64,000 nt of DNA from Gemmatales bacterium. Lineage in GTDB: Bacteria; Planctomycetota; Planctomycetia; Gemmatales; HRBIN36. Location: contig DAOMFV010000005.1 of assembly GCA_035430005.1 (NCBI GenBank), forward strand, positions 15,196-79,195, in the 5' to 3' direction. The translations under genes and the position numbers were made by a program. Of the stretch, positions 7,595 through 29,603 are shown piece by piece. The notes under the pieces are model-generated. The model ran no database searches, was not told the DNA's origin, and worked only from the letters and a program-made list of their open reading frames with translations. Numbering within the stretch: the stretch's first letter is position 1; every line of letters starts with the position of its first letter.

Positions 7595-7755
7595 CCTCTC
7601 TCCCCCACCCCAGAGAGTATTTCGATCAGCTAGCGACTGTCACGCCCGAATCCATGACGATTCCCCAGCTGTCTCCAATGGCGACAGCCCCCTGTCACAA
7701 CCCTAACAATACTCAAAAACCCGACGACAAAACGCCAGACTCTCTGCCTGGCGTT
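7595..7755 (+). repeat. ~160-bp structured intergenic repeat, copy 1
   Basis: About 85% identical to 9569..9728. It contains the CTCTCT..AGAGAG and GACAG..CTGTC inverted repeats and ends in the hairpin ACGCCAG-N9-CTGGCGT. That hairpin is followed by a T-rich run on the minus strand. Confidence 0.75.
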
Positions 7756-7793
7756 TGCGCGTTGCGAATCATCATTTCAATGCGGTTCAAGCA

Positions 7794-8273: not shown

Positions 8274-8478
8274 GGCAGATTCCCATAGGTCGATTGATGT
8301 GTCCGTCAGCATGCTTGTAACACACTATGATCTGCCCTGATAGTGAAATCCAGGCACTGCTCAGCTTTATTAGTCGGTGTGGAGACAGTAGTTGTGCAGA
8401 CCAAGCGGATCAAATGGAGGCGATTAAGATTAACTCTCATTCTTGGTCTGAGAACCAAGGTCTATCTATTGTTCTGCT

Positions 8479-9333: not shown

Positions 9334-9568
9334 GATACAGTCATAACCTGGTGTAAGAAGAGAATGACATACGCCAAAACAGCTTACACCAAAGAATGAA
9401 TAGCCAAAAGCAAAAATCTAGGAGAACATGTGTTGAGTTGCATCAGTTCATGAAGTGGACCCAATCGGCCGCCAACTTAGAATTGCTGCCCAACTTCGGA
9501 GCCCCAGGAGAGAACCTGAGGCTTTGTGTCCACTCAGCGAAGTGCTCGGAGCGTTAACCCCCTTGTCC

Positions 9569-9728
9569 CCTCTCTCCCCCACCCCAGAGAGTTTTTCGAT
9601 CAGCTTTGGCCAATCACGCTTGACTCCATGACGATTCCCGTGCTCTCTCCCTCAACGACAGCCCCCTGACACAACCCTAACAATACTCAAAACCCAACGA
9701 AGAAACGCCAGACTCTCTGCCTGGCGTT
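9569..9728 (+). repeat. ~160-bp structured intergenic repeat, copy 2
   Basis: See copy 1. Same orientation and the same terminal hairpin ACGCCAGACTCTCTGCCTGGCGT. Confidence 0.75.
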
Positions 9729-10182
9729 CGCTGTAAACCACTCTGTAAAATCGGCCTCGATACTGGGAGGCAAGCTCCCCTTGTACAGCGCGTTTGCGAA
9801 CTGTCTCTGACTCAAGGAGATAGGTTTTCTCATCAGTGGAACATGATGGTGGATAATGGGTTACAGCAAGTGGTTCTGAAAGAGCTGTTAACCGCCACAC
9901 CTATCTCTTTCGGTGAGGGAGAGATGTTTTGCCTCGAAACCTCTTTTGGAAGGGCATCGCTGTTAAGCAGGCTGTATGCGCGATGTTCATTGATACACCC
10001 CGCCTGGGTGGGCTGCTCTAGAGTTACCACCGCCGAGCAGCGTGATCTGGTGCCCGCCCGATCCTCGTAGCCATGTGTAATGTCCTGATTCGCCATCATG
10101 GTAGCCGTCCGGTAACGCTGCTGATGTCCCCAACGACCGCTTTCTCGTTGCCCGTCTTCAGCCCCGTGGTTACACTCAGCCC

Positions 10183-10722
10183 ATGTCCGAAGTGACCCGT
10201 ATTCTCGTAGCTGCCCAGCAGGGAGACCGCCAAGCTGCCGCCAACCTGCTCCCGCTCGTTTACGACGAGTTGCGGAAGCTGGCTGCTGTACGCCTAGCCG
10301 CGGAAGCCCCGGGCCACACCCTAGACGCAACCGCTCTCGTCCATGAGGCGTACGTCAGGCTCGTCGGGGACCAGCAATTCGACGGCCGGGGCCACTTCTT
10401 TGCAGCAGCTGCCGAAGCCATGCGCCGCATTCTGGTCGATCATGCACGACATAAAACCAGACTAAAGCATGGAGGCGGACAGCACCGTGTCGAGATGGGT
10501 GATGTTGCCGCGACAACTGCCGATGATCGGCTTCTGGCACTCGACGAGGCATTAACTTTACTAGCGTCCGAAGATGCCACGATTGCCCGGGTCGTGGAAT
10601 TGCGGCATTTTGGCGGGTTACATCACGAACAGATCGCTGTAGCCATGGGCATTACCGTCTACGAAGCTCGGCAAAAATGGACTTACGCCCGTGCCTGGCT
10701 GCAGGACAAACTCCACGAGTAA
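10183..10722 (+). CDS. ECF-type RNA polymerase sigma factor (TIGR02999-like by recollection)
   Basis: N-terminus ...ILVAAQQGDRQAAANLLPLVYDELRKLAAVRLAAEAPGHTLDATALVHEAYVRLVG...FFAAAAEAMRRILVDHAR, which carries sigma2 and sigma4 features. Confidence 0.9.
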   Translation: MSEVTRILVAAQQGDRQAAANLLPLVYDELRKLAAVRLAAEAPGHTLDATALVHEAYVRLVGDQQFDGRGHFFAAAAEAMRRILVDHARHKTRLKHGGGQHRVEMGDVAATTADDRLLALDEALTLLASEDATIARVVELRHFGGLHHEQIAVAMGITVYEARQKWTYARAWLQDKLHE

Positions 10723-10798
10723 CTTATTTTTGTTATTTTTCGACAGCTGGCCCCGATTTCGACGCATTGCTAGATAGAAGCCCCTTGGGAGCCGTCTG

Positions 10799-13700: not shown

Positions 13701-13996
13701 GGCTCAAGACAAATCCAAGCGATTGGACGACGTTTGATGCATATTCCCTTCTCGGTGATTCATTGCTGACTCAGAAGAAATACGCAGAAGCGGAATCAAA
13801 CTTACTAAAGAGTTACCAAGGATTGAAGGAACAAATAAACTCCATCCCAAAGCGATACATTATTCGCGTGTCCGATACTCTTGACCGCATGATTCAACTC
13901 TACTCGGAGATCGACAAAGCAGATGAAGTCAAGAAGTGGCAGGCAGAGAGGGCAAAGTACCCGAAAGCAAAAGACCTGCCTCCCAAGCCTAAATAG
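10799..13996 (+). CDS. Ser/Thr protein kinase with TM segment, coiled coil and ~10 TPR_12 repeats
   Basis: GEGGMGEVW...VALKLIK, HRDLKPSNILV, DFGVAK, MSPEQ. A TM segment (VIAAGLVFCTLLAGVLGTLAGLL), a charged coiled coil, then repeated LGxDHPDTLxSMNNLAxxY units. Confidence 0.9.
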   Translation: MPIDPKRVQAVFLAAVEQTERSARAAVLDHECSGDNELRRRVEALLRANDEPGSYLDQPAVGLPDKQAATEATTGFEATQSYTSADPTPGVVIAGRYTLEQKIGEGGMGEVWVAKQSEPVKRKVALKLIKAGMDSKSVVQRFEQERQALAMMDHPNIAKVLDGGLNADRRPFFVMELVNGLPLTKFCDETKLGIKERLELFIPICQAVQHAHQKGIVHRDLKPSNILVTMIDGKPVPKVIDFGVAKATSGRLTEDSLSTQFGAVVGTLEYMSPEQAEFSGDDIDTRADIYSLGVILYELLTGLRPIDSKRLKKAALTEMIRIIQKEEPSKPSRRLSTDASLPSMAAIRQIDPRKLTNLLRGELDWVVMKCLEKQRDRRYETANGLARDIQRYLADEVVEARPPSLAYKLRKFALRNKVKVIAAGLVFCTLLAGVLGTLAGLLEARRQADAKELARQDEARQRALAEQREREAVGERQKAEVAREQEIVAKNDAVAKRREAEINLGYARKGNEILSSIFTGLDTKTQYAEVGEFRLALSNNLLKAVRELEGSSIGDPLVVAEMQMNLGESLLALGEANLAIEVLEKAHHTREAKLGLDHPDTLASMHSQAMSYSLSGNLDKAVALLEQTLKLRTAKLGPDHHETINTMYSLAISYGEKGNLNQALALLEQTWKMQKSKLGENHVKTLTTMNSLGTAYGKIGRLDEAHTLLEQTLKLMRTNLGTDHPETLRCMKNLAGSYNVVRKLDLAIPLMEQILKHQTANLGANHPSTLSTLTSLADGYRTVGKLEQALPLLEQSLKVQTMKLGSDHPETLRSINNLGGLYYSTGKTDQAIPLLEKAYYLRKAKLGAEHPDTLTSMNNLAGIYQVSGKPELALPLVKQSLELRTAKLGQDHPDTLTSLNNLAMVYREAGKLDEALPLMEQTVKRRTAKLGATHPDTLSSLANLGVILLRQKKGIEAEGIFREHLALRLKTNPSDWTTFDAYSLLGDSLLTQKKYAEAESNLLKSYQGLKEQINSIPKRYIIRVSDTLDRMIQLYSEIDKADEVKKWQAERAKYPKAKDLPPKPK

Positions 13997-14162: not shown

Positions 14163-14905
14163 CTAGGAGCCCGTTGAATAACGGGTATTTTACGCAGCAT
14201 GAGATGACGCACTTCGGTATGTCATGAAGGAGCAGTAGCTGGGGATAGTGAACCGCCACCAGAGGAGAATGATGTGAAGCAGACGGCCCCATCCGTCTTG
14301 CAGGCTTCGGGGAGTGCCTGTCTTGAACAGCTTCCGCATCATGACGCCCAAGTTGAACGCCATGGAAAAGAGCAGGTGCCGCAGTTGCACTTTCGCCAGG
14401 CCACGCAGCCAGGTTCGTCTGCCGGCGCCCGTCTCGCACACGTGAGCGAACGACCGTTCCACCAACTCGCCTCGCTTCTTCATCAGTGACTTACCATTGT
14501 CACTCCGCACGTGCCGACGGTTGTTGCGGAACCGCCTCTCCTGATCCAAATCCTTGTCTACCCACTTGAACGTCCTCCGCCTGCCGCCGGGCTTCTTCTC
14601 CGAGATGAACGTCCGCACTTCCAGTTCCTCGCACTCCTCCAGCGTATCGATGGCGAAGTAACCCTTGTCTGCCACCACTTCCTCAATGTCACTGTCGCTG
14701 CCGCCTCGCACCAGATTGATCTGAGCATCCTCCAGCGTCGTCGCCAGCGTGGCGCTGTCGTGCTTTGTCGCTCGATACACTGGCGACGCCACGATCAAAC
14801 TCGATTCCACGTCCACCGCGTGCTCCACCTTGTACGCCAGGTGCGTCGTGCCGTCCTTCATCTTCGTGATCCGCGCCTCGGGATCGCTCGGCGACTGCCA
14901 ATCGG
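14163..14905 (-). mobile_element. 5'-truncated IS5/IS1182-like DDE transposase remnant, second copy
   Basis: ORF 14190..14987. The transposase-like sequence begins at about SPSDPEARITKMKDGTTHLAYKVEHAVD and runs through ...DKGY...RRGELVERSFAHVCETGAGRRTWLRG. The N-terminal DNA-binding part is missing. Same terminus string as at 549. Confidence 0.75.
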
Positions 14906-15048
14906 CGAGTTCTAAAAAATGGACAATCATCACGTAATCGTGGCGGATGACTGATAGCAATCCTGCTCCTGAGTGTGAACCAGTCACCAGCCCTTGCCTG
15001 TGCCAGGCAAGTCAGCCCCGTTGGCGACCACATTTTGAGGAGTTTCCC

Positions 15049-15381
15049 ATGTTTCGAGTGTTGATGAGTCGTTCGTTGGTACTGGCTCTCTTGAGCCTGT
15101 TTGTCGTCACAGCCGTGCTGCAAGCTGATCAAAAAGGCAAGAAGCCCAAGCCTGGCGCTAGCGCCAGCGTGGAAGGCACCATTAGCGCGGTTGGGGCTGC
15201 ATCTGTCACCATTACCAAACGCAACGGTGTCAGTGTCACAGTCGCGATAGATGCCACGACCAAGATTGAGCGGAATGATCGCCACGTGGCGCTCTCTTCC
15301 ATTCTCGTCGGCGACCGGGGCGAGGCCAAGTATAACCCCGCCACTTTGCTCGCCGGCAAGGTCGAAGCGACTGGGCCATAA
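15049..15381 (+). CDS. small secreted protein (DUF5666-like beta-rich domain, tentative)
   Basis: GAGGAG lies 7 nt upstream of the ATG at 15049. Signal peptide MFRVLMSRSLVLALLSLFVVTAVLQA. The pattern VEGTISAV...VTITKRNG..VTVAIDATTKIERN is present. Confidence 0.55.
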   Translation: MFRVLMSRSLVLALLSLFVVTAVLQADQKGKKPKPGASASVEGTISAVGAASVTITKRNGVSVTVAIDATTKIERNDRHVALSSILVGDRGEAKYNPATLLAGKVEATGP

Positions 15382-15469: not shown

Positions 15470-16108
15470 GTGGAGACACGCATCGTGGTCACCCAGGCAC
15501 GCTGGAGCAGATACATGTCGCAAGAAGGGGCGGGCAATTCGGGCTACCACGCCTCGGATCGCTCCCTGCTTGTCGAACTGCATAAAGGCCAGGATGATGC
15601 CGCCACTCAACTATACCTGCGCTATGCGGATCGCCTGAGATCCCTGGCAAGCAAACAAACCGCGGGTGACTTGCGGGCACGCGTCGATCCGGAAGACATC
15701 GTGCAGTCGGTCTTTCGGACGTTTTTTCGTCGCGCCTCTGAGGGACATTACCAGGTGCCCGAAGGCGAGGAGCTCTGGAAGCTCTTCCTGGTGATTGCCT
15801 TAAACAAGATCCGAACCACGGGAGCTTGGCACCATGCCGCCAAGCGGGACAGCCGAGCTACCGTCGGCAACGATGCGATAGCGGAAGGACAGACGGAGGA
15901 CGAAACCCCGCTGACGATCTTGAACATGGTGATCGAAGAGATGCTGGCCGAGATGTCTGAATCCACTCGTGAGATTATCAAGCAGCGTATCGCCGGGCAC
16001 GAAGTCAGCGACATAGCCTCACAGTCAGGTCGGTCTAAACGGTCGGTTGAACGAGTGTTGCAGGAGTTCCGGGCCAGGCTCGGAGCCAGTTTGATGGAAC
16101 CTCAATGA
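15470..16108 (+). CDS. ECF-type sigma factor (second pair)
   Basis: Sigma2-like DPEDIVQSVFRTFFRR and sigma4-like HTH SDIASQSGRSKRSVERVL. The start is uncertain (GTG 15470, GTG 15485 or ATG 15515). An AAGGTGGAG SD-like string sits at 15467-15475 and TATAAT at 15458-15463. Confidence 0.8.
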   Translation: METRIVVTQARWSRYMSQEGAGNSGYHASDRSLLVELHKGQDDAATQLYLRYADRLRSLASKQTAGDLRARVDPEDIVQSVFRTFFRRASEGHYQVPEGEELWKLFLVIALNKIRTTGAWHHAAKRDSRATVGNDAIAEGQTEDETPLTILNMVIEEMLAEMSESTREIIKQRIAGHEVSDIASQSGRSKRSVERVLQEFRARLGASLMEPQ

Positions 16109-16153
16109 CAGGTTGAATTAATCAACAAGTGTCATGTTAATGGAGCGAGTGCT

Positions 16154-19100
16154 ATGAACGCTGCCCTGATGATCGACAGCGTCATTGAGTCATTCGAGCG
16201 TCAGCGTTCGCACAATCGCGGCACGTCTTTGAGCGATTTCCTGCCCTCGGAAAACTCTGCTGAATTCAACATCATCCTGACCGAACTGGTGCGAGTCGAT
16301 CTCGAATTCAGCTGGGAAGAAGGCAAGCCGAATCGACTGGAAGAGTATCTCGATAGTTATCCACAATTAAAAGACGATCCATCCTCTTTGGGCGCCGTTG
16401 CCTTTGAAGAATATCGGCAGCGGCAACGGGCCGGGGAAACGCCCTCGGCAGCCGAGTATCATCGTCGTTATCGGATTGATACCCGCCAATGGCCGGTTTC
16501 CATGCCTCCTGACGATGCCATTCACGACACCCCGCTGGCAGGTGAAGATCAGCCCACGCTCAGGCGTACACCTACCCAACCTGTTGCCGGTTCAGAGATA
16601 TCATCGCAGCTCTCTTATCTTCTGGATGGCACCGCGCAGAAGTTGCCGCACGTAGGCAGTCATTTCCTTGATTTCATTCTTGAGGCCGAACTGGGGCAGG
16701 GGGCTTTCGGCAAAGTCTATCTCGCTCGACAAATCAGCCTGGCGAAGCGGCAGGTCGCTCTCAAGATTACTGCCCGTAAGCAGCACGAGCCGCAAACCCT
16801 GGCCCGGCTTCGGCACACAAATATCATGCCGATCTATTCAGTGCATAATGCGGGTTCCTGCCAGGCCATTTGCATGCCTTTCCTGGGCCGTACCACGTTG
16901 GCCGACATCCTGCTCGCCTTACGTCAAGAAGCACGCATGCCAGTTTCAGGTTTGTGGTGGTCCCTGTTGATTGAAGGCAACGAGGCGGCGGCACTTGCCT
17001 CTCAATGGAAGCAATCGAGCTATGGCGAAGTGGCGCTTTGTCTGGCGGAGAAGATGGTAGCCGGTTTGGCACATGCCCATGCAGCCGGCATTATTCATCG
17101 TGATATCAAACCCGCCAATATTCTCTTCAGCCAGGATGGCGAGCCGTTGTTGCTCGATTTCAATTTGGCCATCATTCTCGATAACGGCGGCGCGCTAGCG
17201 GAGATGGCGGGCACGTTGCCTTACCTGGCTCCGGAACAACTCGAATCGCTTGTCAAAGGACAGGGCACGACAGGTTCTAAAGCGGCTGACATCTATGCGA
17301 TGGGCCTCATCTTTTATGAACTGTTGACGGGGAAACCTGCATACTCCGGCATCAAGCGTGATTCACTGTTGAGTTATCTGGCTGACCTGGCCAAGCAACG
17401 CCGTGTGCCTGCGGGCCTGGTGCGAACCATCAGTCCTGCCCTGGCGGCCATACTTGCCCGATGCCTGGCTGTCTCGCCAGAAGATCGTTATGCCGATGCT
17501 CAAGAATTGCTTGAGGACCTTCAGCGGCAACGCCGAAATCAGGTGCTGCGTTATGCCCCTGATCGTTCACTGGCGGAACGCTGGTCGAAATGGAACAGGC
17601 GGCATCCCAAGTTCCTCCGCTACGGGCTGATCCTGGGCGTCGCTCTTTTGCTTGTCGCCGGCGGGGTGACCTACTCGCAGTATCGTGAATCGGAGCAGCG
17701 GCTCAACTCTCGAACGCAATTCACTCGTTCTGTGAAAGACTTGCAGCGTGCCGAACGGTTGGCCACCACCATCTGGCCGACCGAGTTAGCGGAAGCTGAG
17801 GCGTTAGTCAAAGAGTTCATCAGCAAGACGCTGGGGATCAATCTGGCGACGCCGGCAACGCTCTTGAATGCGGCGGGTGTGCGCTATCTCACGGAGCAGG
17901 ATCAGCAGCGACTTCCAGCTCTCACTGCCAATGCCCTACTGCTGCAGGCTCATATCTATCGATTGCAGGAACACCGAGCCAAAACTGCCCAGGAGAAGGA
18001 AAAGCTTCGTCAACAATCGCTTCATGCCAACGAACTGGCCCAGCCCTGGTGCCAGGCAGCAGGCTTTGCTTCGGTATGCTCCTGGCAACGTAAGCTGCTC
18101 TTGAACGAGAGTTGGGCCGATGACTGGAAGGCTTTGATTCAGTCGCCACGAGATGCCTTACCCGCAAAACAGTTGGCGGGAATAGCGCATACACTCCTTG
18201 CTCAGCAACATTGGTCCGAAGCAGCGGCGCTGGCCCGGCAAGTGATTGACCGTGAACCGGGTTGGAGCGGCGGATGGTACCTTTATGGCGAAGTCCATGC
18301 CCGTGGAGGCCAACTCCTTCAAGCCTTGCATGGCTTCGATACCGCGCTTGCCTTAGAGCCTGATGTCGCTGTGGCACTTCATTTCCGTGGTCAATTGCGC
18401 ATGCAACTAGGCGATGAAGAAGGCGCTCTGGCTGATTTCGACAAGGCTCTGGCACTCGGCGCCCGGCCGGCATTAGTGCTTGCTGATCGCGCACTGGTCT
18501 TCCTCAACAAACAAAAGCCGAAAGAGGCACTCGATGCCCTGGATCAGGCATTGGCCGCCGACGACACTCAGGTACGCCTCTATTTTCAGCGTGCCAGGGC
18601 TAAGGCTTTGCTTGGCGATAAGAAAGGCGCTGCGGAAGATCGCCGACTTGGCCTGGCGGTAACACCGCTCAATGAACTCGATTTTGTCACTCGTGGCATC
18701 GCCCGCCGGGATGTCGGTGATTGGAAGGGCGCTCTCGATGAATTCAAGAAAGCTGAAGAAGTGGCACCTGCCTATTTGCCGGCCCTGGAGAATCAGTCTG
18801 AAATCCTGGGCGAACAACTACAGAAACCAGCCGAGGCGCTGGCTGTGCTCAATCGTGCCATCGAACGTATTCCGGAATCGACATTGCTCTACGCTTCTCG
18901 GGCCGTCTACCATGCCCGCCTGGGACATCGGGCTGATGCCCTCAGCGATGTGAATTCCGCTCTCAAGCATGATGCTATGCCCAAGCCGTTGACGCTGTAT
19001 CAGATCGGCTGCGTGTATGCTCTGACCAGCAAGAGTCATCCTCCCGATCTATTTCAGGCGATAGCATATCTTTCCATCGCACTAGAGCAACACTTTGGCA

Positions 19101-19186
19101 AAGAGTATTTGGCCATCGATACTGATCTCAACCCTATTCGATCACGACCAGAGTTCCAGGAGCTGATCAAGCGATACCCGAAATAA
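16154..19186 (+). CDS. Ser/Thr protein kinase with TM segment and C-terminal TPR domain
   Basis: GQGAFGKVY...VALKI, HRDIKPANILF, DFN (in place of DFG), LAPEQ. TM segment LILGVALLLVAGGV, then TPR-like repeats in the C-terminal 350 aa. Confidence 0.85.
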   Translation: MNAALMIDSVIESFERQRSHNRGTSLSDFLPSENSAEFNIILTELVRVDLEFSWEEGKPNRLEEYLDSYPQLKDDPSSLGAVAFEEYRQRQRAGETPSAAEYHRRYRIDTRQWPVSMPPDDAIHDTPLAGEDQPTLRRTPTQPVAGSEISSQLSYLLDGTAQKLPHVGSHFLDFILEAELGQGAFGKVYLARQISLAKRQVALKITARKQHEPQTLARLRHTNIMPIYSVHNAGSCQAICMPFLGRTTLADILLALRQEARMPVSGLWWSLLIEGNEAAALASQWKQSSYGEVALCLAEKMVAGLAHAHAAGIIHRDIKPANILFSQDGEPLLLDFNLAIILDNGGALAEMAGTLPYLAPEQLESLVKGQGTTGSKAADIYAMGLIFYELLTGKPAYSGIKRDSLLSYLADLAKQRRVPAGLVRTISPALAAILARCLAVSPEDRYADAQELLEDLQRQRRNQVLRYAPDRSLAERWSKWNRRHPKFLRYGLILGVALLLVAGGVTYSQYRESEQRLNSRTQFTRSVKDLQRAERLATTIWPTELAEAEALVKEFISKTLGINLATPATLLNAAGVRYLTEQDQQRLPALTANALLLQAHIYRLQEHRAKTAQEKEKLRQQSLHANELAQPWCQAAGFASVCSWQRKLLLNESWADDWKALIQSPRDALPAKQLAGIAHTLLAQQHWSEAAALARQVIDREPGWSGGWYLYGEVHARGGQLLQALHGFDTALALEPDVAVALHFRGQLRMQLGDEEGALADFDKALALGARPALVLADRALVFLNKQKPKEALDALDQALAADDTQVRLYFQRARAKALLGDKKGAAEDRRLGLAVTPLNELDFVTRGIARRDVGDWKGALDEFKKAEEVAPAYLPALENQSEILGEQLQKPAEALAVLNRAIERIPESTLLYASRAVYHARLGHRADALSDVNSALKHDAMPKPLTLYQIGCVYALTSKSHPPDLFQAIAYLSIALEQHFGKEYLAIDTDLNPIRSRPEFQELIKRYPK

Positions 19187-19349
19187 CTTCTACGAGAGGA
19201 AATAGGTGGTTTTGGTGGCGTTCTCCAGACGTGTGCAGCCAGAAAGCCTATAGTTATCTTTTCGTTGGCGGATCGGGGCATGTATTCCGACTACTCGCTG
19301 TAGCAGTGAGATGTGCATGTATTTTTGCTATTCTGCAGGTTGAGGTATT

Positions 19350-21308
19350 GTGATGAAGCGATCTGCGCGTTTGACAATCGAATCCCTGGAAGATCGCAAC
19401 ACGCCGGCTACTTTTGGCATTCCGCAAAGCGATCCGTTGCATCTGACCATTAGCTTCGTTCCTGATGGCACCAATGTCGCTGGCACACCCAGTGCCTTGT
19501 TTCAAACGCTGAACGCACTCTCTTCGACCAGCGCGTGGCAGAACGAAATCCTTCGTGCCGCCGGGGCTTGGGCGAATGTGGCCAACATCAACTTTGGCGT
19601 CGTCAGCGACAATGGCGTTCCGCTTGGCGCAGCGACACCAATTGACGGCAACGCCTCCTTTGGCGTGATTCGCATTGCCGCCAAGCCCTTAGCCAACAAT
19701 GTGCTGGCGGTAGGCATTCCTCCCAATGAGTTTGGCGCCGGCACCTGGGCGGGTGACATTATCTTCAACACCAACACCAACCTGGCGAAGCAGAAGACCG
19801 ATCTCTACACCGTGTTCCTGCATGAAATCGGCCATGCATTGGGCTTGCCTGGTTCAGCCGACCCCCGTTCGGTGATGTATCAAAAGATCGCCGGGAAACG
19901 CATCGGCCTGGCACTCAGCGATGTGGTTACGGTTGATAATCTCTATGGCACGAGGTTGCCGGATCAGAACGAAACGCCTGGTAAAGGCAACGACACGCTC
20001 AAGCTGGCGACACGCATGAAGTATGAAGACACAGGACTGGAAGCGTGGACAGGCACGGTTCCCCTGGTTTCCTTTGGCGATATTACCCGGAGCACCGATG
20101 TAGACGTTTTTTCTTTCCAGAACCTTCTTGATTACCATGGGCCGATCAGCTTCCGTCTGCTCACGCAGGGCATTAGCCTGCTGAATCCCAAAATCAGCGT
20201 ACTCGATGCTCAGGGAAAAGTCATTGACTCCCGGCTCAGCCAGCAGACAGCCGGCGCCGACCTTGTGGTGACGTTGCCCGCCAGTACGGCAGGCGCTAAG
20301 TATTTCATTCGCGTGGAAGCCGAGAGCATCAGTGGTTTTTTCAGCGTTGGTCGTTATGCTCTGTCGCTGACTCTCGATCAACGACTCACCACCCCGGCAT
20401 CGACCATCACCAGCGTCCTGCGTGGCCCGTTCGACGCTTTTCCGGCCGGCGATCTGGAGTCGCTCTTCAGCCAAAATCCGGAAGACGCCCTTTTCCACCA
20501 GGATGATTCCAGCGATGACACGGCTAAGAATGCCGGTCGTCTTACCAGCAATAATGCCGTGGGCTCCACGTTCGATGTGGTGGGCAGCCTGCAATCAGCG
20601 GACGATGTGGATTTCTATCGTGTCCGAGTACCTCGGCTCAACGTCGATCCTGTATCGAACATGACCGTTACGATAACGCCCTATTCCATTCACGGCGTGA
20701 TGCCTGATGTTCAGCTCTTTGACAAGAACCAGAAACCGGTAGCCTTCAATGTGCTCAGCAATGGCAACGGCGTGTTAGTCATCCAGTCGGTCGGCCTCAA
20801 GGTCAACGATGACTATTTCATTCGCATCGCCAACGCACCGGGGCAGGCGAGCACGGGAAACTATCATGCCAACTTTCGCTTTGGCAGGACAGCAACCACA
20901 CTCGAGACGTTCTTTTCCGGCTCCGTAGCAGCCACAGGCGCCACGTCCAAGGTCTATGTCGCCGAGCCACAGCTTTTCCACTTGTTGCTGTCATCCAATA
21001 ACGGCGTCGCTTTGACAATGACCATCGAAGATACGGCAGGCAACACATTGTTTACTTTGACCAGCAACGGTCCTCCGGCAAGCGGCCAGCCGTTGCTGCT
21101 TCAGCCTGGCGAATATCACATCCGTTTGAGCAGCAATGGCCAACCGACCAGGGCGACGCTTCGCGGCGATTTGATCAGCGACCCCATCGGTTCCGTGGTC
21201 GTCGATCCTAACTCGACTCCGCCATACACCAACCCCGATGGCACCAATACCTATCCCAATGGGACGAAAACGACCAAGCCTTTCCTGTGGCTGGCGTTGA
21301 CTGTTTGA
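19350..21308 (+). CDS. metzincin-like zinc metalloprotease with PPC-like domains (paralog 1)
   Basis: HEIGHALGLPGSADPRSVMY (HExxHxxG plus a Met-turn-like SVMY). DVDVFSF and DVDFYRV pre-peptidase-C-terminal-like motifs. N-terminus MMKRSARLTIESLEDRNTPA has no hydrophobic signal peptide. Confidence 0.75.
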   Translation: MMKRSARLTIESLEDRNTPATFGIPQSDPLHLTISFVPDGTNVAGTPSALFQTLNALSSTSAWQNEILRAAGAWANVANINFGVVSDNGVPLGAATPIDGNASFGVIRIAAKPLANNVLAVGIPPNEFGAGTWAGDIIFNTNTNLAKQKTDLYTVFLHEIGHALGLPGSADPRSVMYQKIAGKRIGLALSDVVTVDNLYGTRLPDQNETPGKGNDTLKLATRMKYEDTGLEAWTGTVPLVSFGDITRSTDVDVFSFQNLLDYHGPISFRLLTQGISLLNPKISVLDAQGKVIDSRLSQQTAGADLVVTLPASTAGAKYFIRVEAESISGFFSVGRYALSLTLDQRLTTPASTITSVLRGPFDAFPAGDLESLFSQNPEDALFHQDDSSDDTAKNAGRLTSNNAVGSTFDVVGSLQSADDVDFYRVRVPRLNVDPVSNMTVTITPYSIHGVMPDVQLFDKNQKPVAFNVLSNGNGVLVIQSVGLKVNDDYFIRIANAPGQASTGNYHANFRFGRTATTLETFFSGSVAATGATSKVYVAEPQLFHLLLSSNNGVALTMTIEDTAGNTLFTLTSNGPPASGQPLLLQPGEYHIRLSSNGQPTRATLRGDLISDPIGSVVVDPNSTPPYTNPDGTNTYPNGTKTTKPFLWLALTV

Positions 21309-21354
21309 TGCCTAACCAAGAGCAAGCAGCGTGTTGAAGAATAATATAGTCGTG

Positions 21355-21387
21355 GCAGGGGCACGATGTACTCATCGTGCCCCCTGC
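21355..21387 (+). terminator. stem-loop downstream of protease 1
   Basis: GCAGGGGCACGATG-TACT-CATCGTGCCCCCTGC, a ~14-bp stem with one bulge. It is followed by AAAACA, not a T-run, so its terminator function is uncertain. Confidence 0.4.
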
Positions 21388-21676
21388 AAAACAGCCAGGA
21401 TGATGCGCATTCAGCAGCCAAGTTGGGGGCGAGCGCTAAAGTACTATGTGATGTGCGCTCTCGCGGCGCTAAGCTCGTCCCACTTATTGCTTCAGCCCAC
21501 CAATTGAATTGCGCTAGCCGATGCCCGGCACGTTGAACGAAAAAGTTTTCCAAATTAGTGGCGGATGAAGCAGCGAGATACTGCTACTTGTCTACAGCGG
21601 ATGGTCACGACTGTCGACTTAAGACAACTCTGCTCATCCATTATTCTGTTCTTCTTATCATGTTCGGAGTTGTCTT

Positions 21677-24600
21677 ATGTCGCTCTCATGGTTTCGTCGG
21701 CTTGCGAAGCAGCCAAAAGTAAACCGTCCTGTTCAAACCCCACGTCGGAAACCTTACCGTCTGATGATGGAAGCACTCGAAGACCGAACGGTGCCGGCCT
21801 ACCTGGCCCCCGTAACCTTCGCTGCCGGACTGAACCCGGTAGGTGTTGCTGTTGGTGATTACAATGGCGACGGCAAGTCCGACATGGCTGTTGCCAACAA
21901 TGCTGCCGTGGGAATGGTCAGTATTCTCCTCAGCAATGGGGACGGCACTTTTGGAACTCCAGTCTCCTACCCTGCCGGTGCCTATCCGATTGATGCCGTC
22001 GCTGGTGATCTCAATGGTGATGGAAAGATCGATCTCGCCGTCGCCGACACCTCCGGTACGGTCAATGTTCTTCTAGGCAACGGCGATGGCACCTTTGGTG
22101 CAGCTGCCTCCTATGCTGCCGGTCTCAATGCCCACTCGATCAAAGTCGGCGACTTCAATAATGATGCCGTTCCTGACATCGCCACCATGAATTACGGCTC
22201 TGCCAGTGTCCTGATAGGCAATGGCGATGGGACCTTCCAACCTGCTTTAACTACTTCCCTTCCTGGCAACAACATCAACATGGTCGTTGGAGACTTCAAC
22301 CGAGATGGCAATCTTGATATGGCCACCTCGAACACCACGAGCATCGGTGCTATCTCCGTTCTCAGCGGGCATGGCGATGGTTCATTCGGCCCAGCGACCA
22401 GCTACTATGCCTACTCAGCACCAGTCTATCTGGCTTGTGGCGATTTCAACCATGATGGCTACGACGATTTCTGCGTCGCCAATTCCTACGCTGCAACGGC
22501 GATGAGCGTCGTCATGAACAAGGGGGATGGCACTTACGCTCCTCCCGTCACATACAACATCGCCCAGACCGGTTGGGAGATCGAGGTGGCCGACTTCAAC
22601 AATGATGGCAACCAGGATTTTGCTGTCCGTGGCTCCTCGCAATACATGGTCGGGCTGGGCAAAGGTGACGGCACCTTCTTCGCACCTGTGAGCTACCCCA
22701 CCTCAGCCGGTCGCTTTGAAATGGGCACGCATGGCGACTTCAATGCTGATGGAGCTGTCGACTTCGCCTACCCTGCCACCAATGGCGTGACCGTATTGAT
22801 GAACGCCAACACCGACATGGGGAACACCGCTGTCGGGTTCCAAGTTACCATGCCGAGCTCTACTACTGCCGGCTCGTCGCTGCCGATTACAGTGACAGCT
22901 ATCGATAAGGATGGAAACAAGGCGAGCGGGTTTTACGGCAACGTTTACATCACCAGTAGCGATCCGGGTGCAACGCTGGCTGTCCCATACACATTCACTC
23001 CTGCTGATAATGGCACACACACTTTTGATGGATCAGTGCGCCTGGTCACTCTGGGTGATCAAACCGTAACCATCGCATCACCCATGATGACAGCCTTCAC
23101 AGGCACGGTCCACGTGACACCTGCTGTGACACGGTTTGGCGTCTCTGCACCGGTAGCTTCAGCCGCTGGTGACGTTTTTAATGTAACTGTCACAGCCTAC
23201 GATGCGTTGGGCAATGTCGGTACAGGCTACACCAGCACGGTTCATTTCGCCAGTACCGATGGACAGGCTGGGCTGCCTGCTGATTACACGTTCACCCCAG
23301 AGGACGCTGGCGTTCACACATTCTCGGTCACGCTCAAGACCGCTGGTTTCAAGTACATCAGTGCCACCGAGATCAGCTCAACGAAGACTGGCGGGGCGTT
23401 CGTAAATGTCACCCCCATCGCTGCCTCGAGTCTTACGCTGGCTGGTGCCGGTGGCGCCATTGGTGTAGCTCGCCCGGTTACGGTCGTGGCCCGCGACATC
23501 TATGGCAACCTTGCTGCCAGCTACACTGGCACGGTACACTTCACCAGTTCGGATCCACAGGCGGTCTTGCCTGCGGATGTCGCTTTGGTGAACGGCACTG
23601 CCACGGCTAATGTGACGCTGTATACCATCGGAACTCAGACGATCACCGCTACCGATGTGGCCGTATCCTCTATCAATGGCACCCTATCGAGTGCGGCCAC
23701 AGCACCAATTGCCAAACTCTTTGTCGTCACAGGTTATCCAGCCAGCACAGCGGGTGTCGCACAGACATTCACCGTCACGGTCATTGATACCATTGATCAG
23801 ATCGCCGCAGGGTATGCCGGGACAATTTACTTCTCCAGTTCCGATGTCCAGGCCGGGCTGCCCGCGAGCTATACGTTTACACCTGGGCCAGGAGGTGGCC
23901 GAGCTTCTTTTACTGCTGCACTGAAGACTGCTGGAACCCAATCGATCACGGTTCGAGATGCCAACGGCGTTGTCGGTTCGCAAATGGGCATCAATATCAA
24001 TGCCGCAGCATTCTCCGGCTTCCGACTTTCCGTTCCTAATCCGACGGATAGTCATGGCCATATGCTGGTGACAGCCGGAGATGTTACCACCTTGACTGTC
24101 AAGGCTTCAGATGCCTTTGGCAACAGTGTTTCAGGCTACAAGGGTAAGGTCAAGTTCAGCAGTACGGATACCCTGGCCAGTGTACCTGTAGATTACAACT
24201 TCACCGCAGCAGACGCAGGAACACACACGTTCAATGTGGTTCTTAAAACAGCGACAGCGAACGGCGTGGTATGGTCGTTCAATGCCGTCGATGCGTCGAA
24301 TGCAACCACGTTAACAACAATCACGAACTTTGAGGTGATCAACGCAGCTGCCTCAAAGTTCGTCCTGAATGTCCCTTCGAATATCACAGCTGGGTCTCCA
24401 TTCGCCCTCAAAGTCTCCGTCCTGGATGCTTACGGGAACCGGGTGAAAAACTACTTTGGCAAGATCCACTTCAGCAACACTGCCGGGGCTGTTGGACTCC
24501 CTGCAGACTACACCTTTGACAGCATCGATGCCGGGGTTCACAGCTTTATGATCACGCTGAACACTATCGGCAATCAGACCATCAGCATTACCGATGTAGC

Positions 24601-24706
24601 CAACGCGCTATTGAGTGCCAGCACGACAGTCAGTGTGAAAGCCGGCACAGGAACAGGTGGCGGTGGCGGCGGTGGTGGCGGTGGTGGCGGCGGCAAGCCA
24701 GTTTAA
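21677..24706 (+). CDS. FG-GAP seven-repeat beta-propeller protein with six tandem Ig-like modules and a poly-Gly tail
   Basis: Seven GDxNxDGxxDxxxxN repeats within aa ~55-385. Six ~95-aa modules of the form Y.G.VHF.S.D..A.LPADYTFT..D.G.H.F.V.L.T.G.Q.I. Ends in G13-KPV. N-terminus ...RLMMEALEDRTVPA. Confidence 0.8.
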   Translation: MSLSWFRRLAKQPKVNRPVQTPRRKPYRLMMEALEDRTVPAYLAPVTFAAGLNPVGVAVGDYNGDGKSDMAVANNAAVGMVSILLSNGDGTFGTPVSYPAGAYPIDAVAGDLNGDGKIDLAVADTSGTVNVLLGNGDGTFGAAASYAAGLNAHSIKVGDFNNDAVPDIATMNYGSASVLIGNGDGTFQPALTTSLPGNNINMVVGDFNRDGNLDMATSNTTSIGAISVLSGHGDGSFGPATSYYAYSAPVYLACGDFNHDGYDDFCVANSYAATAMSVVMNKGDGTYAPPVTYNIAQTGWEIEVADFNNDGNQDFAVRGSSQYMVGLGKGDGTFFAPVSYPTSAGRFEMGTHGDFNADGAVDFAYPATNGVTVLMNANTDMGNTAVGFQVTMPSSTTAGSSLPITVTAIDKDGNKASGFYGNVYITSSDPGATLAVPYTFTPADNGTHTFDGSVRLVTLGDQTVTIASPMMTAFTGTVHVTPAVTRFGVSAPVASAAGDVFNVTVTAYDALGNVGTGYTSTVHFASTDGQAGLPADYTFTPEDAGVHTFSVTLKTAGFKYISATEISSTKTGGAFVNVTPIAASSLTLAGAGGAIGVARPVTVVARDIYGNLAASYTGTVHFTSSDPQAVLPADVALVNGTATANVTLYTIGTQTITATDVAVSSINGTLSSAATAPIAKLFVVTGYPASTAGVAQTFTVTVIDTIDQIAAGYAGTIYFSSSDVQAGLPASYTFTPGPGGGRASFTAALKTAGTQSITVRDANGVVGSQMGININAAAFSGFRLSVPNPTDSHGHMLVTAGDVTTLTVKASDAFGNSVSGYKGKVKFSSTDTLASVPVDYNFTAADAGTHTFNVVLKTATANGVVWSFNAVDASNATTLTTITNFEVINAAASKFVLNVPSNITAGSPFALKVSVLDAYGNRVKNYFGKIHFSNTAGAVGLPADYTFDSIDAGVHSFMITLNTIGNQTISITDVANALLSASTTVSVKAGTGTGGGGGGGGGGGGGKPV
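24656..24694 (+). repeat. (GGY)13 trinucleotide microsatellite encoding 13 glycines
   Basis: GGTGGCGGTGGCGGCGGTGGTGGCGGTGGTGGCGGCGGC, located 3 codons before the stop. Confidence 0.9.
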
Positions 24707-24730
24707 ACGACTCTTTTATGAAAATTACTG

Positions 24731-24768
24731 CCAAGGAGATTCTCATGGTCTCCTTGGCTCATCTTTTT
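24731..24768 (+). terminator. rho-independent terminator after the FG-GAP gene
   Basis: CCAAGGAGA-TTCTCATGG-TCTCCTTGG (9-bp stem) followed by CTCATCTTTTT. Confidence 0.6.
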
Positions 24769-24949
24769 GACTATTTTTTAGCAGTTTGGAATAGATCGCA
24801 AGCACATCAGGTCAAATGAGTTACGTCACATGGTCAACCAAGGATGACAACTCGTTTTATGAAACGATAATAATTTGTGGCGGTTAGGAGGAGACGATCC
24901 CGCTCTTCATGGCGTAGCTGAAGTATTGTTTCGAGCGAACAGGTGAGAT

Positions 24950-26875
24950 ATGCGACGTACCCTTTTGCAAATCGACAGCCTTGAAGACCGTTGCGTACCT
25001 GCGACTTTCGGTGTGCCCTGGACAGATCCGCGCCATTTGACGCTCAGTTTTGTACCCGATGGCACGGATGTGGGTGGGGTTCCCAGCAGCCTGTTCAGTA
25101 CCTTGGATAGCCTCGCTCCGCGAGCCACCTGGCAGAGCGATATATTACGTGCAGTACAGTCATGGGTCGCACCAGGCAATTTGAATGTCGGAGTAGTATC
25201 TGACAATGGCGATGCGATGGGCATCTCCGGCTTGGCTCAAAATGATTCTCGTTTCGGCACCATCCGCATCGCCGCGAAACCGATGGCCAACAACGTATTA
25301 GCCATCGGCATACCTCCTGATCCGTATTTCTCAGGTACCTGGTCCGGCGATATTGTCTTCAATACGAATACCAACCTCTCCAGTCAGAACACCGACCTCT
25401 ATTCCATCTTTCTTCACGAAGTAGGGCATGCGTTAGGGCTGCCCGATTCAGATGATCCATCCTCTGCGCTGTTTGAATCTGCCGGCGGCTATAGGTCTGG
25501 GATCAGCGCTGCTGATTTTTCGGCGTTGACCGCTCTCTATGGAGCGCGCACTTCAGATTCACATGAATTCAATGACACGTTGTCTGCCGCGACCAGACTG
25601 CAAGCATCCAATGGCTGGACGGGGACGACCCCTGTTGTGGGCTTTGGAGAAATCAGCACGAGTCAGGATGTAGACTATTATCAGTATCAGGCCCCCTCAG
25701 GCTATTCCGGCGCTACTACCTTTCGTGTGCAATCCAGCGGGCTTAGTTTGCTGACAGCCAAAGTCAGCCTGGTTGATAACAAGGGCCATGACATCGTCAG
25801 TCCCGTGACATCCAATTTGCTGGGCGATACCTTGTTCCTGCGAGTGCCCCAGTCAACGCCGGGCGCTAACTATTATTTGCGCATTGAACGGGGCCCGGGC
25901 GATGGCAGTCGAATCGGTCGATATGCCGTAGCCATCACATTGGATAGCAGATTGACCACGACAGAATCCACGTTGGATTCCATTCTACGCGGGCCGTACG
26001 ACACGCTCTCGTCTAGCGATCTGGATAAGTTGTTGATTGATGGCCCCAGCGCTTTCATCTCGAACGATGCTCATTCTGATGATAGCCTGGGAACAGCCAA
26101 GTCGCTTCAGCCTGCTCCTGGAGTGGTCGGCGGAACCGCTTACAAGACCTTCGGATCATTCAGTGACAGCGCCGATGTCGATGTCTATCGTGTTCGAGCT
26201 CCTCGAACAGACAACGGATCAACCATCAACATGACGATTAATGTCACGCCGATGATGGTTCACGGCGTGGTTCCGAAGATTCAGGTGTATGATCGCAATT
26301 CTAACCTGGTCAACAGCGATATTCTGGCGAGTGACGACGGTCTCTTCGTCGTGCAGGCCATCGGGCTGCAAGGCAATGTCGATTACTTCGTTCGTTTGGA
26401 AAGCGCTGCTAATTCACCAGCCGGCAACTATTCACTGAATATTCTATTTGGCGCACAGTCAGCAACTCTTGAGACTTTTGTGGATGGCACTGTCCCAGCA
26501 GCGGGCACAACTACTTCGGTGTTTATCGCAAAGCCACAATTGTTTCACCTGCTTCTTTCGAGCATTGATGGCGGAGTATCGGTCGTTATTCAAGGCAACA
26601 ACTCTTCGTTCACACTCACCAGCACTGATGGCGGTGCCGTTAGTTCTTCCATCTTATTGCAGCCTGGCGAGTACAGCGTTACCTTCGTGCCGACAAATCC
26701 ATCAGCAGGCTCGATCAATTTCAGCTTGCGTGGGGCGCTATTGTCAGACCCTATCGGTTCCGTGGTGGTTGATCCGAACTCGACGCCTCCATTCACCAAT
26801 CCTGATGGGACAAACACCTATCCGAATGGGACCACAACGAAAAAAAGCTACTTGTGGCTTTCGCTGGTGGCTTGA
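24950..26875 (+). CDS. metzincin-like zinc metalloprotease with PPC-like domains (paralog 2)
   Basis: HEVGHALGLPDSDD (HExxHxxGxxD, snapalysin-like third-ligand position). Collinear with 19350..21308. N-terminus MRRTLLQIDSLEDRCVPA. The C-terminal 32 aa are nearly identical to paralog 1. Confidence 0.75.
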   Translation: MRRTLLQIDSLEDRCVPATFGVPWTDPRHLTLSFVPDGTDVGGVPSSLFSTLDSLAPRATWQSDILRAVQSWVAPGNLNVGVVSDNGDAMGISGLAQNDSRFGTIRIAAKPMANNVLAIGIPPDPYFSGTWSGDIVFNTNTNLSSQNTDLYSIFLHEVGHALGLPDSDDPSSALFESAGGYRSGISAADFSALTALYGARTSDSHEFNDTLSAATRLQASNGWTGTTPVVGFGEISTSQDVDYYQYQAPSGYSGATTFRVQSSGLSLLTAKVSLVDNKGHDIVSPVTSNLLGDTLFLRVPQSTPGANYYLRIERGPGDGSRIGRYAVAITLDSRLTTTESTLDSILRGPYDTLSSSDLDKLLIDGPSAFISNDAHSDDSLGTAKSLQPAPGVVGGTAYKTFGSFSDSADVDVYRVRAPRTDNGSTINMTINVTPMMVHGVVPKIQVYDRNSNLVNSDILASDDGLFVVQAIGLQGNVDYFVRLESAANSPAGNYSLNILFGAQSATLETFVDGTVPAAGTTTSVFIAKPQLFHLLLSSIDGGVSVVIQGNNSSFTLTSTDGGAVSSSILLQPGEYSVTFVPTNPSAGSINFSLRGALLSDPIGSVVVDPNSTPPFTNPDGTNTYPNGTTTKKSYLWLSLVA

Positions 26876-28124: not shown

Positions 28125-29603
28125 ATGTTATCGCTGTACCCCGCCAGTCCTACCACCATGAATCCTCGACACAATCATAGCCACGCTTTCGATTTGTTCC
28201 ATCCTCATTCACGGGAAGGAGTTTCCGTAGTCACCAGACGAAACTTCCTCAAAGCGAGCTTGGCTGGAATGGGAGCGTTAAGTGTCCCAGCACTCCTACA
28301 ACAGCGTGCCTTGGCAACGGAACGAGGCAAGTCGATCTCTAGCCATAAGAGTGTGATTCTTCTGTGGATGTCAGGCGGACCAAGCCAAATCGATACCTGG
28401 GACCCAAAGCCAACACGACCACTGCAAAATCGTGGGCCGTTCGGGGTCATCCGGACGAAGTTGCCTGGAGTGTTCGTCTGCGAGCACCTTCCCAAGCAGG
28501 CGGCGATGCTCGATAAGTTCACCATCATTCGTTCTGTTGATGCTGAAAAAAGCAATCATGAACCGAATCGAGTCTTTCAGACAGGAAATTTAGAAGCGGA
28601 GCCACGCCTCAATCCTATCGGCCATCTCTACCCAGGCATTGGCTCCATTGTCTCGAAGTATCACGGAGCCAATCAACCAGGCATGCCACCATACGTCTCA
28701 TTCCATCGATCCCGCGATCACGTTGCCTTCGCCGGTTACCTCGGCATGGAGTACGACCCTTTTCCAGGTAACCTCGCCTGCAATCTGCCGATCTACGACA
28801 ACGTGGGCAAGGACACGGGACGTATTTCAAGGACAAACCTCTTCCAGGCTGTGAAGGGGATGACCTCTAGAGAGATGAGTCAGCGACTGACATTGACGCA
28901 ACAACTCGATCATCTGCGGCGAGACATCGATGCTAGCGGGGCGATGGCAGCGATGGATCGCTATCAGCAGCAGGCCGTCGAACTGGTACTGGGCGGTAAG
29001 GCAAGAACAGCTTTTAGCTTAACTGATGAGCCAGCCAAGAATCGTGAACGATATGGAATGCACCTCTGGTGCCAACAGGCCCTCATCGCCCGGCGATTGG
29101 TGCAAGCAGGCGTCGCCTTTGTCACCATTGATCTCAATTACCATCCAGCTTCGGGAACTTGGGATACACATGGCGACAACATCCCTCCCTATGGCGGTAT
29201 CAGTAAGGGCTTGAAGCCGCTGCTGCCCCTATTCGATCACTTGATAACCACTCTAGTGAGCGATCTCCAGGAGCATGATCTTCTCAATGATGTCCTGGTT
29301 ATTGCCATGGGAGAGTTTGGTCGCACACCGCAGATGGGCACGCAGGACAGCACCGATGGGCGGAACCATTGGCCGAACATTATGTCAATGTGCCTCGCGG
29401 GGGGCGGTCTGCGGCATGGACAGGTCATCGGTGAATCGGAGCAGGATGGCGGAGCGATCAAATCGAACCCTGTCACTCCCAGCGATCTGGCTGCTACGAT
29501 CTATCGCCACATGGAGGTGCCGCTTGACACGACGTACCTTGATACTATAGGTCGGCCGAGGGCGATTGTTGATGCTGGGAAGCCGATTGCGGAATTGTTT
29601 TGA
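28125..29603 (+). CDS. DUF1501 domain protein (sulfatase-fold, Tat signal)
   Basis: Tat-like TRRNFLKASLAGMGALSV, SVILLWMSGGPSQIDTWDPKP, ...GEFGRTP...DGRNHWP. This is typical of planctomycete DUF1501. An alternative start is at 28158. Confidence 0.85.
   Translation: MLSLYPASPTTMNPRHNHSHAFDLFHPHSREGVSVVTRRNFLKASLAGMGALSVPALLQQRALATERGKSISSHKSVILLWMSGGPSQIDTWDPKPTRPLQNRGPFGVIRTKLPGVFVCEHLPKQAAMLDKFTIIRSVDAEKSNHEPNRVFQTGNLEAEPRLNPIGHLYPGIGSIVSKYHGANQPGMPPYVSFHRSRDHVAFAGYLGMEYDPFPGNLACNLPIYDNVGKDTGRISRTNLFQAVKGMTSREMSQRLTLTQQLDHLRRDIDASGAMAAMDRYQQQAVELVLGGKARTAFSLTDEPAKNRERYGMHLWCQQALIARRLVQAGVAFVTIDLNYHPASGTWDTHGDNIPPYGGISKGLKPLLPLFDHLITTLVSDLQEHDLLNDVLVIAMGEFGRTPQMGTQDSTDGRNHWPNIMSMCLAGGGLRHGQVIGESEQDGGAIKSNPVTPSDLAATIYRHMEVPLDTTYLDTIGRPRAIVDAGKPIAELF

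Follow-up and report, generated by a model that had tools for sequence, protein, structure and literature searches.

Three consecutive genes of an uncultured Gemmatales bacterium begin with the same short, charged leader. It is very likely that this leader is the Gemmatales form of the Planctomycete leader family PF07595 and that it stands in for a signal peptide of the general secretory (Sec) type. The genes lie on the forward strand of a 64,000-nucleotide stretch (GenBank assembly GCA_035430005.1, contig DAOMFV010000005.1, positions 15,196 to 79,195), which is called the window here and is numbered from its first nucleotide. Gene 1 (19353-21308) and gene 3 (24950-26875) encode matrixin-type metalloproteases of 651 and 641 amino acids, while gene 2 (21677-24706) encodes a protein of 1009 amino acids with an FG-GAP beta-propeller and about six immunoglobulin-like (Ig-like) repeats of about 100 amino acids. 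The motif is already known, and the role that we propose for it was stated in 2004 and again in 2021; the window leaders are further members in an uncultured Gemmatales genome. By their defining features, they are neither Sec, twin-arginine translocation (Tat) nor lipoprotein signals, and their proteins are not type I secretion substrates.

Three consecutive genes share an N-terminal leader

The leader of gene 1 (19353-19409) consists of MKRSAR followed by LTIESLEDRNTPA, with the core at 19371-19409. In gene 2 (21677-21799), a 28-residue stretch rich in lysine and arginine precedes LMMEALEDRTVPA (core 21761-21799). The leader of gene 3 (24950-25003) consists of MRRTL followed by LQIDSLEDRCVPA (core 24965-25003) and fits the family alignment A2. 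The initial annotation of this DNA had noted the shared motif of these three forward-strand genes, and the open reading frame (ORF) coordinates, the N-termini and a six-frame scan bear it out. The pattern LE[DEN]R..[PL] matched the window three times, always at the N-termini of genes 1-3, and LEDRxxPA likewise occurred three times in the six-frame translation, once per gene start. At the DNA level, the pattern CTN GAR GAY CGN N6 CCN GC was found three times compared to 0.01 expected matches (100 shuffles of the window). The synonymous third positions vary among the three sites (CTG/CTC/CTT, GAT/GAC and CGC/CGA/CGT), which indicates that selection acts on the peptide.

The nearest in-frame stop codon is 14, 51 and 11 codons upstream of LEDR in genes 1, 2 and 3, respectively. 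The stops at 14 and 11 codons mean that genes 1 and 3 have no hidden upstream signal peptide, and the ORF of gene 2 has no earlier start codon; the objection that true starts further upstream could reveal ordinary signal peptides was thereby refuted. The product of gene 1 is 100 % identical to P0001 ('matrixin family metalloprotease [Gemmatales bacterium]', 651 amino acids). That record starts with the ATG at 19353, one codon after a GTG at 19350 (MKRSARL rather than MMKRSARL), and an exact-sequence look-up of the 652-amino-acid product that starts at the GTG returned no match.

The peak Kyte-Doolittle hydropathy over 10 residues within the first 70 amino acids was 1.12, 1.73 and 1.03 for genes 1, 2 and 3, compared to 2.4-3.3 by the same measure for segments elsewhere in the window that are clearly signals or anchors; in gene 2, the peak of 1.73 falls on the first FG-GAP blade. 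A Sec-type hydrophobic region (h-region) of about 7-15 residues is missing from genes 1-3, and the core holds four charged residues. No lipobox ([LVI][ASTVI][GAS]C after an h-region) was present in the three N-termini, and neither was the Tat consensus S/T-R-R-x-F-L-K with an uncharged h-region. Gene 3 starts with MRRTLL and continues with acidic residues, and since no uncharged h-region follows, this is not a Tat signal. Hydropathy and motif inspection therefore agree with the initial annotation that all three kinds of classical signal are absent. The small-residue rule for signal peptidase I is obeyed, with T, V and V at position -3 and A at position -1, assuming a cut after Pro-Ala. In the neighbouring DUF1501 protein (28125-29603), a canonical twin-arginine signal is present (TRRNFLKASLAGMGALSVPALL, with TRRNFLK and an h-region), and ordinary hydrophobic signal peptides are found on several further ORFs of the window, which shows that classical signals and the leader coexist in this genome.

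The leader is a Gemmatales form of PF07595

The only Pfam family that matched the three window N-termini was PF07595, Planc_extracel or 'Planctomycete extracellular' (Studholme, Fuerst & Bateman 2004). Gene 1 scored 15.2-16.2 bits and gene 2 scored 11.3 bits against a gathering cut-off of 25.5, and gene 3 had no match at E <= 10. The alignment spans the LxxExLExR core and ends where Pfam has LLA and the window leaders have Pro-Ala. When 73 related N-termini were scanned individually, 25 matched PF07595 at E <= 1, and the best match (2.3e-8) was of the type that ends in LL[AST]. NCBIfam holds no model for the leader.

The sequence RRLxxExLExRxLLA was described as a putative novel N-terminal export signal of Rhodopirellula baltica and became PF07595 (Studholme et al. 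2004, via Seeger et al. 2021, PMC8567305). By allowing <=4 mismatches to this R. baltica consensus, Seeger et al. derived an equivalent motif, LxLExLExRxxP, which is present in 52 Tuwongella immobilis proteins, including 8 of the 10 longest proteins of that organism (PMC8567305). Twenty of the carriers were detected by mass spectrometry, 8 of these solely in the fraction soluble in sodium dodecyl sulfate (SDS), and homologues were present in a Gemmata membrane fraction that contains pores (PMC8567305). Other papers handle PF07595 as a signal-peptide family.

The window leaders share with PF07595 the extreme N-terminal position after a basic stretch, the core L-x-x-E-x-L-E-x-R (LTIESLEDR, LMMEALEDR and LQIDSLEDR, with Asp for the first Glu in gene 3), the Planctomycete host and cargo of the extracellular type. 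They differ in the ending, which is x-L-L-A in PF07595 whereas the window leaders end in NTPA, TVPA and CVPA. The consensus LxLExLExRxxP is matched by LTIESLEDRNTP, LMMEALEDRTVP and LQIDSLEDRCVP with one or two conservative substitutions per gene (I or M for L, D for E). The Tuwongella carriers (PMC8567305) also belong to the order Gemmatales, have the Pro-containing consensus and bear similar cargo (proteases, Ig-like and FG-GAP-annotated proteins), and aside from the Asp of gene 3 there is no essential difference.

The two endings are connected by orthologues. Of the 120 best matrixin homologues, whose hosts include Gemmatales, Isosphaeraceae such as Aquisphaera, Urbifossiella and Limnoglobus, most have a basic stretch and hExLE(D/E)RxxPA (h, hydrophobic) directly before FG(V/I)PWxDxxHLT(L/I)SFxPDGT. 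Some matrixin orthologues have LEPRNLLT, LEERRLLA or LEDRNLLS in the LEDRxxPA column before FGVPW, and for one orthologue, P0112, a PF07595 match is precomputed. Variants in the FG-GAP family are LEDRSVPT, LEGRRLLA, LEGRVVLS, LEGRALMA and LEAREMMT, and P0121, a homologue 92 % identical to gene 2, has the leader layout unchanged. Since xxPA and xLL[AST] interchange in orthologues, the window motif is a Gemmatales dialect of PF07595. Whether the motif had a formal description had been left open at first; it has one, as PF07595 and as LxLExLExRxxP, and the motif is thus not new.

The leader lies at the position of a signal peptide

The anatomy of the leader was derived from 26 independent carriers at positions that the search pattern did not fix. 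An acid-free stretch of about 5-40 residues rich in lysine and arginine is followed by the core R-[L/P]-x-[L/V/I]-E-x-L-E-[D/E]-R and by the ending x-[A/T/V/C]-P-A, which alternates with x-L-L-[A/S/T] among orthologues; about two residues further on, the first folded domain starts. The 15 residues upstream hold 2-7 lysines and arginines and at most one acidic residue (none in 20 of the 26). Counted from the first Glu, position -1 holds L, V or I in 23 carriers, and position -3 holds L in 14 carriers and P in 8. Two residues ahead of Pro-Ala, T, L, I or C predominate, and the residue directly before Pro, which is position -3 from the putative cut, is A, T, V or C in 26/26. The last leader residue is A in these carriers and A, S or T in family variants. 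Downstream of Pro-Ala, V, T, A or G is followed by a pattern like that of a beta-strand. Between Arg and Pro-Ala, cysteine occurs at the two variable positions in 6 of the 26 independent carriers (named as L043, L113, L007, L010, L041 and L108) and also in gene 3 (Cys15, 24992-24994). The mature parts of four of these six carriers and of gene 3 are cysteine-free, and those of the other two (L042, L043) have a few cysteines.

An AlphaFold2 model of protease 1, the product of gene 1, was built with 64 homologues (mean predicted local distance difference test score, pLDDT, 88.3; predicted template modelling score 0.86). Residues 9-19 (IESLEDRNTPA) had a pLDDT < 50, confidence was 84-95 from residue 21 onwards, and L12 and R15 of the leader were invariant in the 64 homologues. 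As a conserved segment with predicted disorder directly ahead of the fold, the leader looks like a linear recognition signal. In a carrier with a glycoside hydrolase family 18 (GH18) domain, the leader has 17 residues and the Pfam domain starts from residue 21. In Planctomycete FG-GAP homologues, the leader lies about 19 residues before the first GDxNxDG; in homologues of the Bryobacteraceae and other Acidobacteria type, about 20 residues separate that GDxNxDG from a hydrophobic signal peptide with AxA at its end. Taken together, these results show that, in structure and in evolution, the leader stands where a signal peptide would. Within the window, an ORF of 110 amino acids (15049-15381, forward strand) has a classical signal peptide and shares homology with the C-terminal domain of 385-amino-acid RTX-repeat proteins of relatives, and these begin with the leader variant LTLESLGERIAPA; this ORF represents either a leader/signal-peptide swap or a truncated gene. 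It adjoins a DDE transposase gene (14190-14987, reverse strand) that lies between two sigma factor/kinase modules.

The leader could be an atypical Sec signal peptide, whose charged core SecA and SecYEG tolerate and which is cleaved by signal peptidase I behind x-[ATVC]-P-A or L-L-A. The N-terminal site, the basic n-region, the small residues at -3 (A, T, V or C in all carriers) and -1 (A), and the distance to the first fold are common to both, the leader sits where homologues bear Sec signal peptides, and Sec and Tat signals are in use in this genome. However, where a Sec signal peptide has its hydrophobic h-region, the leader has a conserved charged core, with two Glu, one Asp or Glu and one Arg within nine residues, and its hydropathy peaks at 1.0-1.7 compared to 2.4-3.3 for real signals in the window. 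Signal peptidase I requires a membrane-spanning h-region to present its cleavage site, which also counts against this possibility. We consider it rather unlikely.

A lower probability still attaches to the idea that the motif is kept on the mature protein as a docking or anchoring tag for the envelope while something else drives export. The eight T. immobilis carriers confined to the SDS-soluble fraction (cell wall and outer membrane) and the homologues in the Gemmata pore-containing membrane fraction (PMC8567305) would suit such a tag. The window proteins have no other export signal, though, their leader has the position of the cleaved signal peptides of homologues, and the motif is predicted to be disordered and outside the fold; a retained tag is therefore improbable.

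The leader is carried by many kinds of proteins of the extracytoplasmic type

We scanned one genome per GTDB species for the codons of E.LEDR..PA, which gave at least 120 loci. Among the matches listed, 29 of the 31 with a Planctomycetota label were in frame and followed a start codon at a distance of between a few and a few dozen codons, with a stretch rich in lysine and arginine before the motif and a long ORF after it. The 89 matches listed in other taxa were mostly in random frames inside unrelated reading frames. About ten of these look genuine, with a basic stretch, hEhLEDRxxPA and a long ORF (L007, L010, L024, L028, L030, L041, L071, L098, L100 and L108). They are in metagenome-assembled genomes labelled Chthoniobacteraceae, Alcaligenaceae, Bacteroidales, Peribacteria or 'bacterium', and reflect either binning or labelling errors or an occurrence of the motif beyond Planctomycetota.

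The Pfam domains of ten carriers were GH18 with dockerin, DUF4114, FG-GAP with dockerin, Big_12/13 with a cyclophilin-type domain, subtilase with P-domain, SdrD_B/CarboxypepD_reg, and BNR/Calx-beta. Unrelated carriers also include beta-helix and Ig-repeat proteins, and near the matrixin orthologues the leader was found on an aspartic protease with dockerin and, in L125, on a PKD protein. The concern that the motif might be just as common in cytoplasmic proteins or at random sites is thus answered by its N-terminal position in the listed Planctomycetota matches and by the extracytoplasmic type of its cargo. Carriers had a median of 0.00 % cysteine and an isoelectric point (pI) of 4.46, compared to 0.91 % and 8.46 for the other ORFs of the window, so their mature parts are acidic and almost cysteine-free; 74 of 94 matrixin homologues have no cysteine. 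Acidity and low cysteine content fit an extracellular fate.

This range of cargo bears on a further possibility, namely that the motif is a pro-peptide confined to the protease family, where it would keep the enzymes latent in the manner of the cysteine switch of matrix metalloproteases (MMPs). The motif does stand directly before the catalytic domain, and some members have Cys at the x positions, such as LEDRCVPA in gene 3. Its presence on FG-GAP, GH18, subtilase, beta-helix and Ig-repeat proteins contradicts this reading, and the matrixin family does not conserve the Cys; a pro-peptide is thus very improbable. Chance or an annotation artefact, with real starts upstream and ordinary signal peptides, has a negligible probability and is refuted by the in-frame stops 14 and 11 codons upstream, the three DNA-pattern matches where 0.01 were expected, and the same layout in most of the 120 listed matrixin homologues and in dozens of unrelated carriers, with nothing found in its favour. 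The published reading, the genome census, the structure prediction and the exchange with Sec-type signals in homologues all support what the initial annotation had suggested, a non-classical N-terminal targeting or processing leader on proteins of the extracytoplasmic type.

Possible routes of export

That the motif itself acts as the export or sorting signal is probable. A dedicated route outside Sec is the likeliest mechanism for this leader, at somewhat less than an even prospect. In such a route, a dedicated Planctomycete factor or translocon would recognise the leader as a linear motif without structure and not through insertion of a hydrophobic core into SecYEG, because the charged core cannot act as an h-region. 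A cut behind the small residue that ends it would then remove the leader; in the proteases, this cut (Pro-Ala | Thr-Phe-Gly) would leave a T/F-G-(V/I)-P-W N-terminus, at the point where the mature chain of activated MMPs begins. The sequences make cleavage after Pro-Ala plausible, given that the fold starts two residues later, that the last leader residue is always small and that position -3 is A, T, V or C in 26/26 carriers.

A more specific proposal is tentative: a Sec-independent route particular to Planctomycetia could read the K/R stretch, hxhExLE(D/E)R and x[ATVC]PA or xLL[AS], and a dedicated peptidase could remove the leader. Functionally, this route would resemble leader-dependent export by ATP-binding cassette (ABC) transporters or type I secretion, except that the N-terminus would go first, which would suit the giant surface proteins (> 4,000 amino acids) that bear the leader. 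In a variant of this proposal, the charged, Pro-containing motif would act on the nascent chain and couple translation to targeting.

Two known systems offer partial parallels. Double-glycine leaders, which are handled by peptidase-containing ABC transporters, are likewise N-terminal, non-hydrophobic and conserved, and the resemblance serves as an analogy only; the window leaders have no Gly-Gly site, and neither a C39 ABC transporter nor a membrane fusion protein was seen nearby. Type I secretion cargo, including RTX proteins, serralysins and giant adhesins, is likewise acidic and nearly cysteine-free with Ca-binding or adhesin-type repeats, but these traits are also common to Sec-exported homologues of the carriers. 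Type I substrates have RTX repeats and a C-terminal signal, and the window proteins have neither: the three proteins gave no HemolysinCabind match, and the cluster contains no pair of ABC transporter and membrane fusion protein. Low cysteine and low pI were also considered as a sign of a type I-like route and were dismissed after comparison with FG-GAP homologues that bear signal peptides.

Several observations weigh against the interpretation of the leader as a PF07595-type export signal. All three window leaders score below the PF07595 gathering threshold, so that formal membership fails, and the link to the family therefore rests on the orthologue alignment and on the 2021 paper. Our literature search found no experiment on sufficiency, necessity, cleavage or machinery of the leader for export, and the motif is not discussed in the fucoidan and Frigoriglobus papers. 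The fractionation of Tuwongella is indirect, and 8 of the 20 detected carriers were exclusive to the SDS fraction (PMC8567305). The FG-GAP homologues with signal peptides are equally acidic and cysteine-poor (0.29 % Cys, pI 4.06), which makes both measures uninformative on the export route. Finally, all-against-all clustering of ORFs at 44 leader-bearing loci showed no recurrent transporter or peptidase beside the carriers. An apparent 'ABC' cluster at these loci reflected only similarity between nucleotide-binding domains, and an ABC exporter near one relative, L123, was rejected as an associated transporter: it lacks a C39 peptidase domain, and Pfam gave no match for the genes around it.

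The two matrixin-type proteases

Pfam assigned both proteases to PF00413 (gene 1, E 4.8e-12 and 46.5 bits; gene 3, E 4.1e-07 and 30.4 bits; cut-off 24), and they are 49 % identical to each other. Both have an MMP-type catalytic domain with sequence matches in the PDB to MMP-12, MMP-13 and karilysin, and the predicted fold of protease 1 matched the catalytic domains of MMP-8, -12 and -13 with Foldseek TM-scores of 0.7-0.77 (normalised by target length). Score and fold thus both place them among the matrixins. The C-terminal part consists of three PPC-like beta-sandwich domains that resemble the tandem collagen-binding domains of ColG (Foldseek), which roughly supports the label 'PPC' first given to these proteins.

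The complete zinc motif HExxHxxGxxH is present in neither protease. Gene 1 has HEIGHALGLPG within HEIGHALGLPGSAD (19821-19862), with Gly at the position of the third ligand as in P0001-P0008, and gene 3 has HEVGHALGLPD within HEVGHALGLPDSDD (25415-25456), with Asp at this position, as in snapalysin; among other homologues, the residue is H, D, P, N or E. Judging from its sequence, protease 1 may lack activity or may bind zinc through a different ligand. The likeness to MMPs and karilysin (MEROPS M10A) lies in the fold and in the HExxHxxG...M Met-turn region, and from established MMP sequences the segment FG(V/I)PWxDxxHLT(L/I)SF would parallel the start of the mature MMP domain. MMPs have a cysteine-switch pro-domain and a hemopexin domain, whereas the window proteases have no pro-domain and have PPC-like domains in the place of hemopexin.

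A tail common to the family, SDPIGP..DPT..P.Y..P..YP.G..T..P(F/Y)LWL, with a few hydrophobic residues at its tip, ends both proteases (21177-21308 and 26744-26875). It was considered as a sorting signal and dropped, as the last approximately 30 residues had fair confidence in the AlphaFold model with a terminal strand that seems to belong to the fold; a low-confidence linker at residues 610-621 precedes these residues.

No support for a dedicated unit of the three genes

The initial annotation had also suggested that an adhesin-like protein flanked by two dedicated proteases forms a functional unit, and the neighbourhoods of relatives and a hairpin between genes 2 and 3 do not support this. 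In 4/4 relatives of protease 1 (L123-L126, 54-74 % identity), an extracytoplasmic function (ECF) sigma factor gene (PF07638) is followed by the gene for a Ser/Thr kinase of about 1000 amino acids with tetratricopeptide repeats (TPR) and then by the matrixin gene, at about 6200-12000 of these loci. The window has the matching arrangement at 15515-21308: gene calls and Pfam matches on L121, a locus identical to the window, placed an ECF sigma factor gene at 15515-16108 and a gene for a Ser/Thr kinase of about 1000 amino acids with TPR repeats at 16154-19186, both on the forward strand. Downstream of the protease 1 relatives, neither an FG-GAP gene nor a second matrixin gene was present in any of the four loci. 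Two homologues of the FG-GAP protein (59-60 % identity, on the three contigs L127-L129) had no flanking matrixins, and one of them, on L128 and L129, is divergent and adjoins another ECF sigma factor/kinase pair. A second such pair lies in the window at about 10180-13996. The pairs may be a regulatory module for surface proteins. Ser/Thr kinases were also the commonest neighbour family at the leader-bearing loci (12 of 44, with 7 outside the orthologous set), which by a rough estimate is close to chance given their high copy number in Gemmatales.

The gaps between the genes are 368 bp (genes 1 and 2) and 243 bp (genes 2 and 3). A consensus scan of the forward strand identified a terminator-like hairpin of 12 pairs with a T run just 3' of gene 2 (24730-24758) and a sigma-70-like promoter match (10/12) 5' of gene 3 (24844-24871); both come from consensus matching alone, and promoter-like sites are no more numerous in this region than shuffling predicts. 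Gene 2 itself matched PF13517 (E 1.8e-45, seven stretches) and PF01839 (E 8.5e-17), with weak Ig-like matches, and its product ends with a run of 13 glycines followed by Lys-Pro-Val (24656-24703). Taken together, these results indicate that the three genes are independent carriers of the leader and not a dedicated adhesin/protease module.

Significance

As a PF07595-type export leader, the motif would mark much of the repertoire of large surface and secreted proteins in Planctomycetes. Standard predictors overlook the leader, and the inventories of the secretome, carbohydrate-active enzymes and adhesins of the phylum would therefore be systematically underestimated. The sequence rules found here can be used in experiments: the acid-free basic stretch, the invariant Leu and Arg, the A, T, V or C at position -3, the start of the fold about two residues after Pro-Ala, and the exchange with Sec signals in homologues. 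For annotation, the two MMP-like proteins and the FG-GAP/Ig protein of this uncultured Gemmatales bacterium should be treated as exported proteins.

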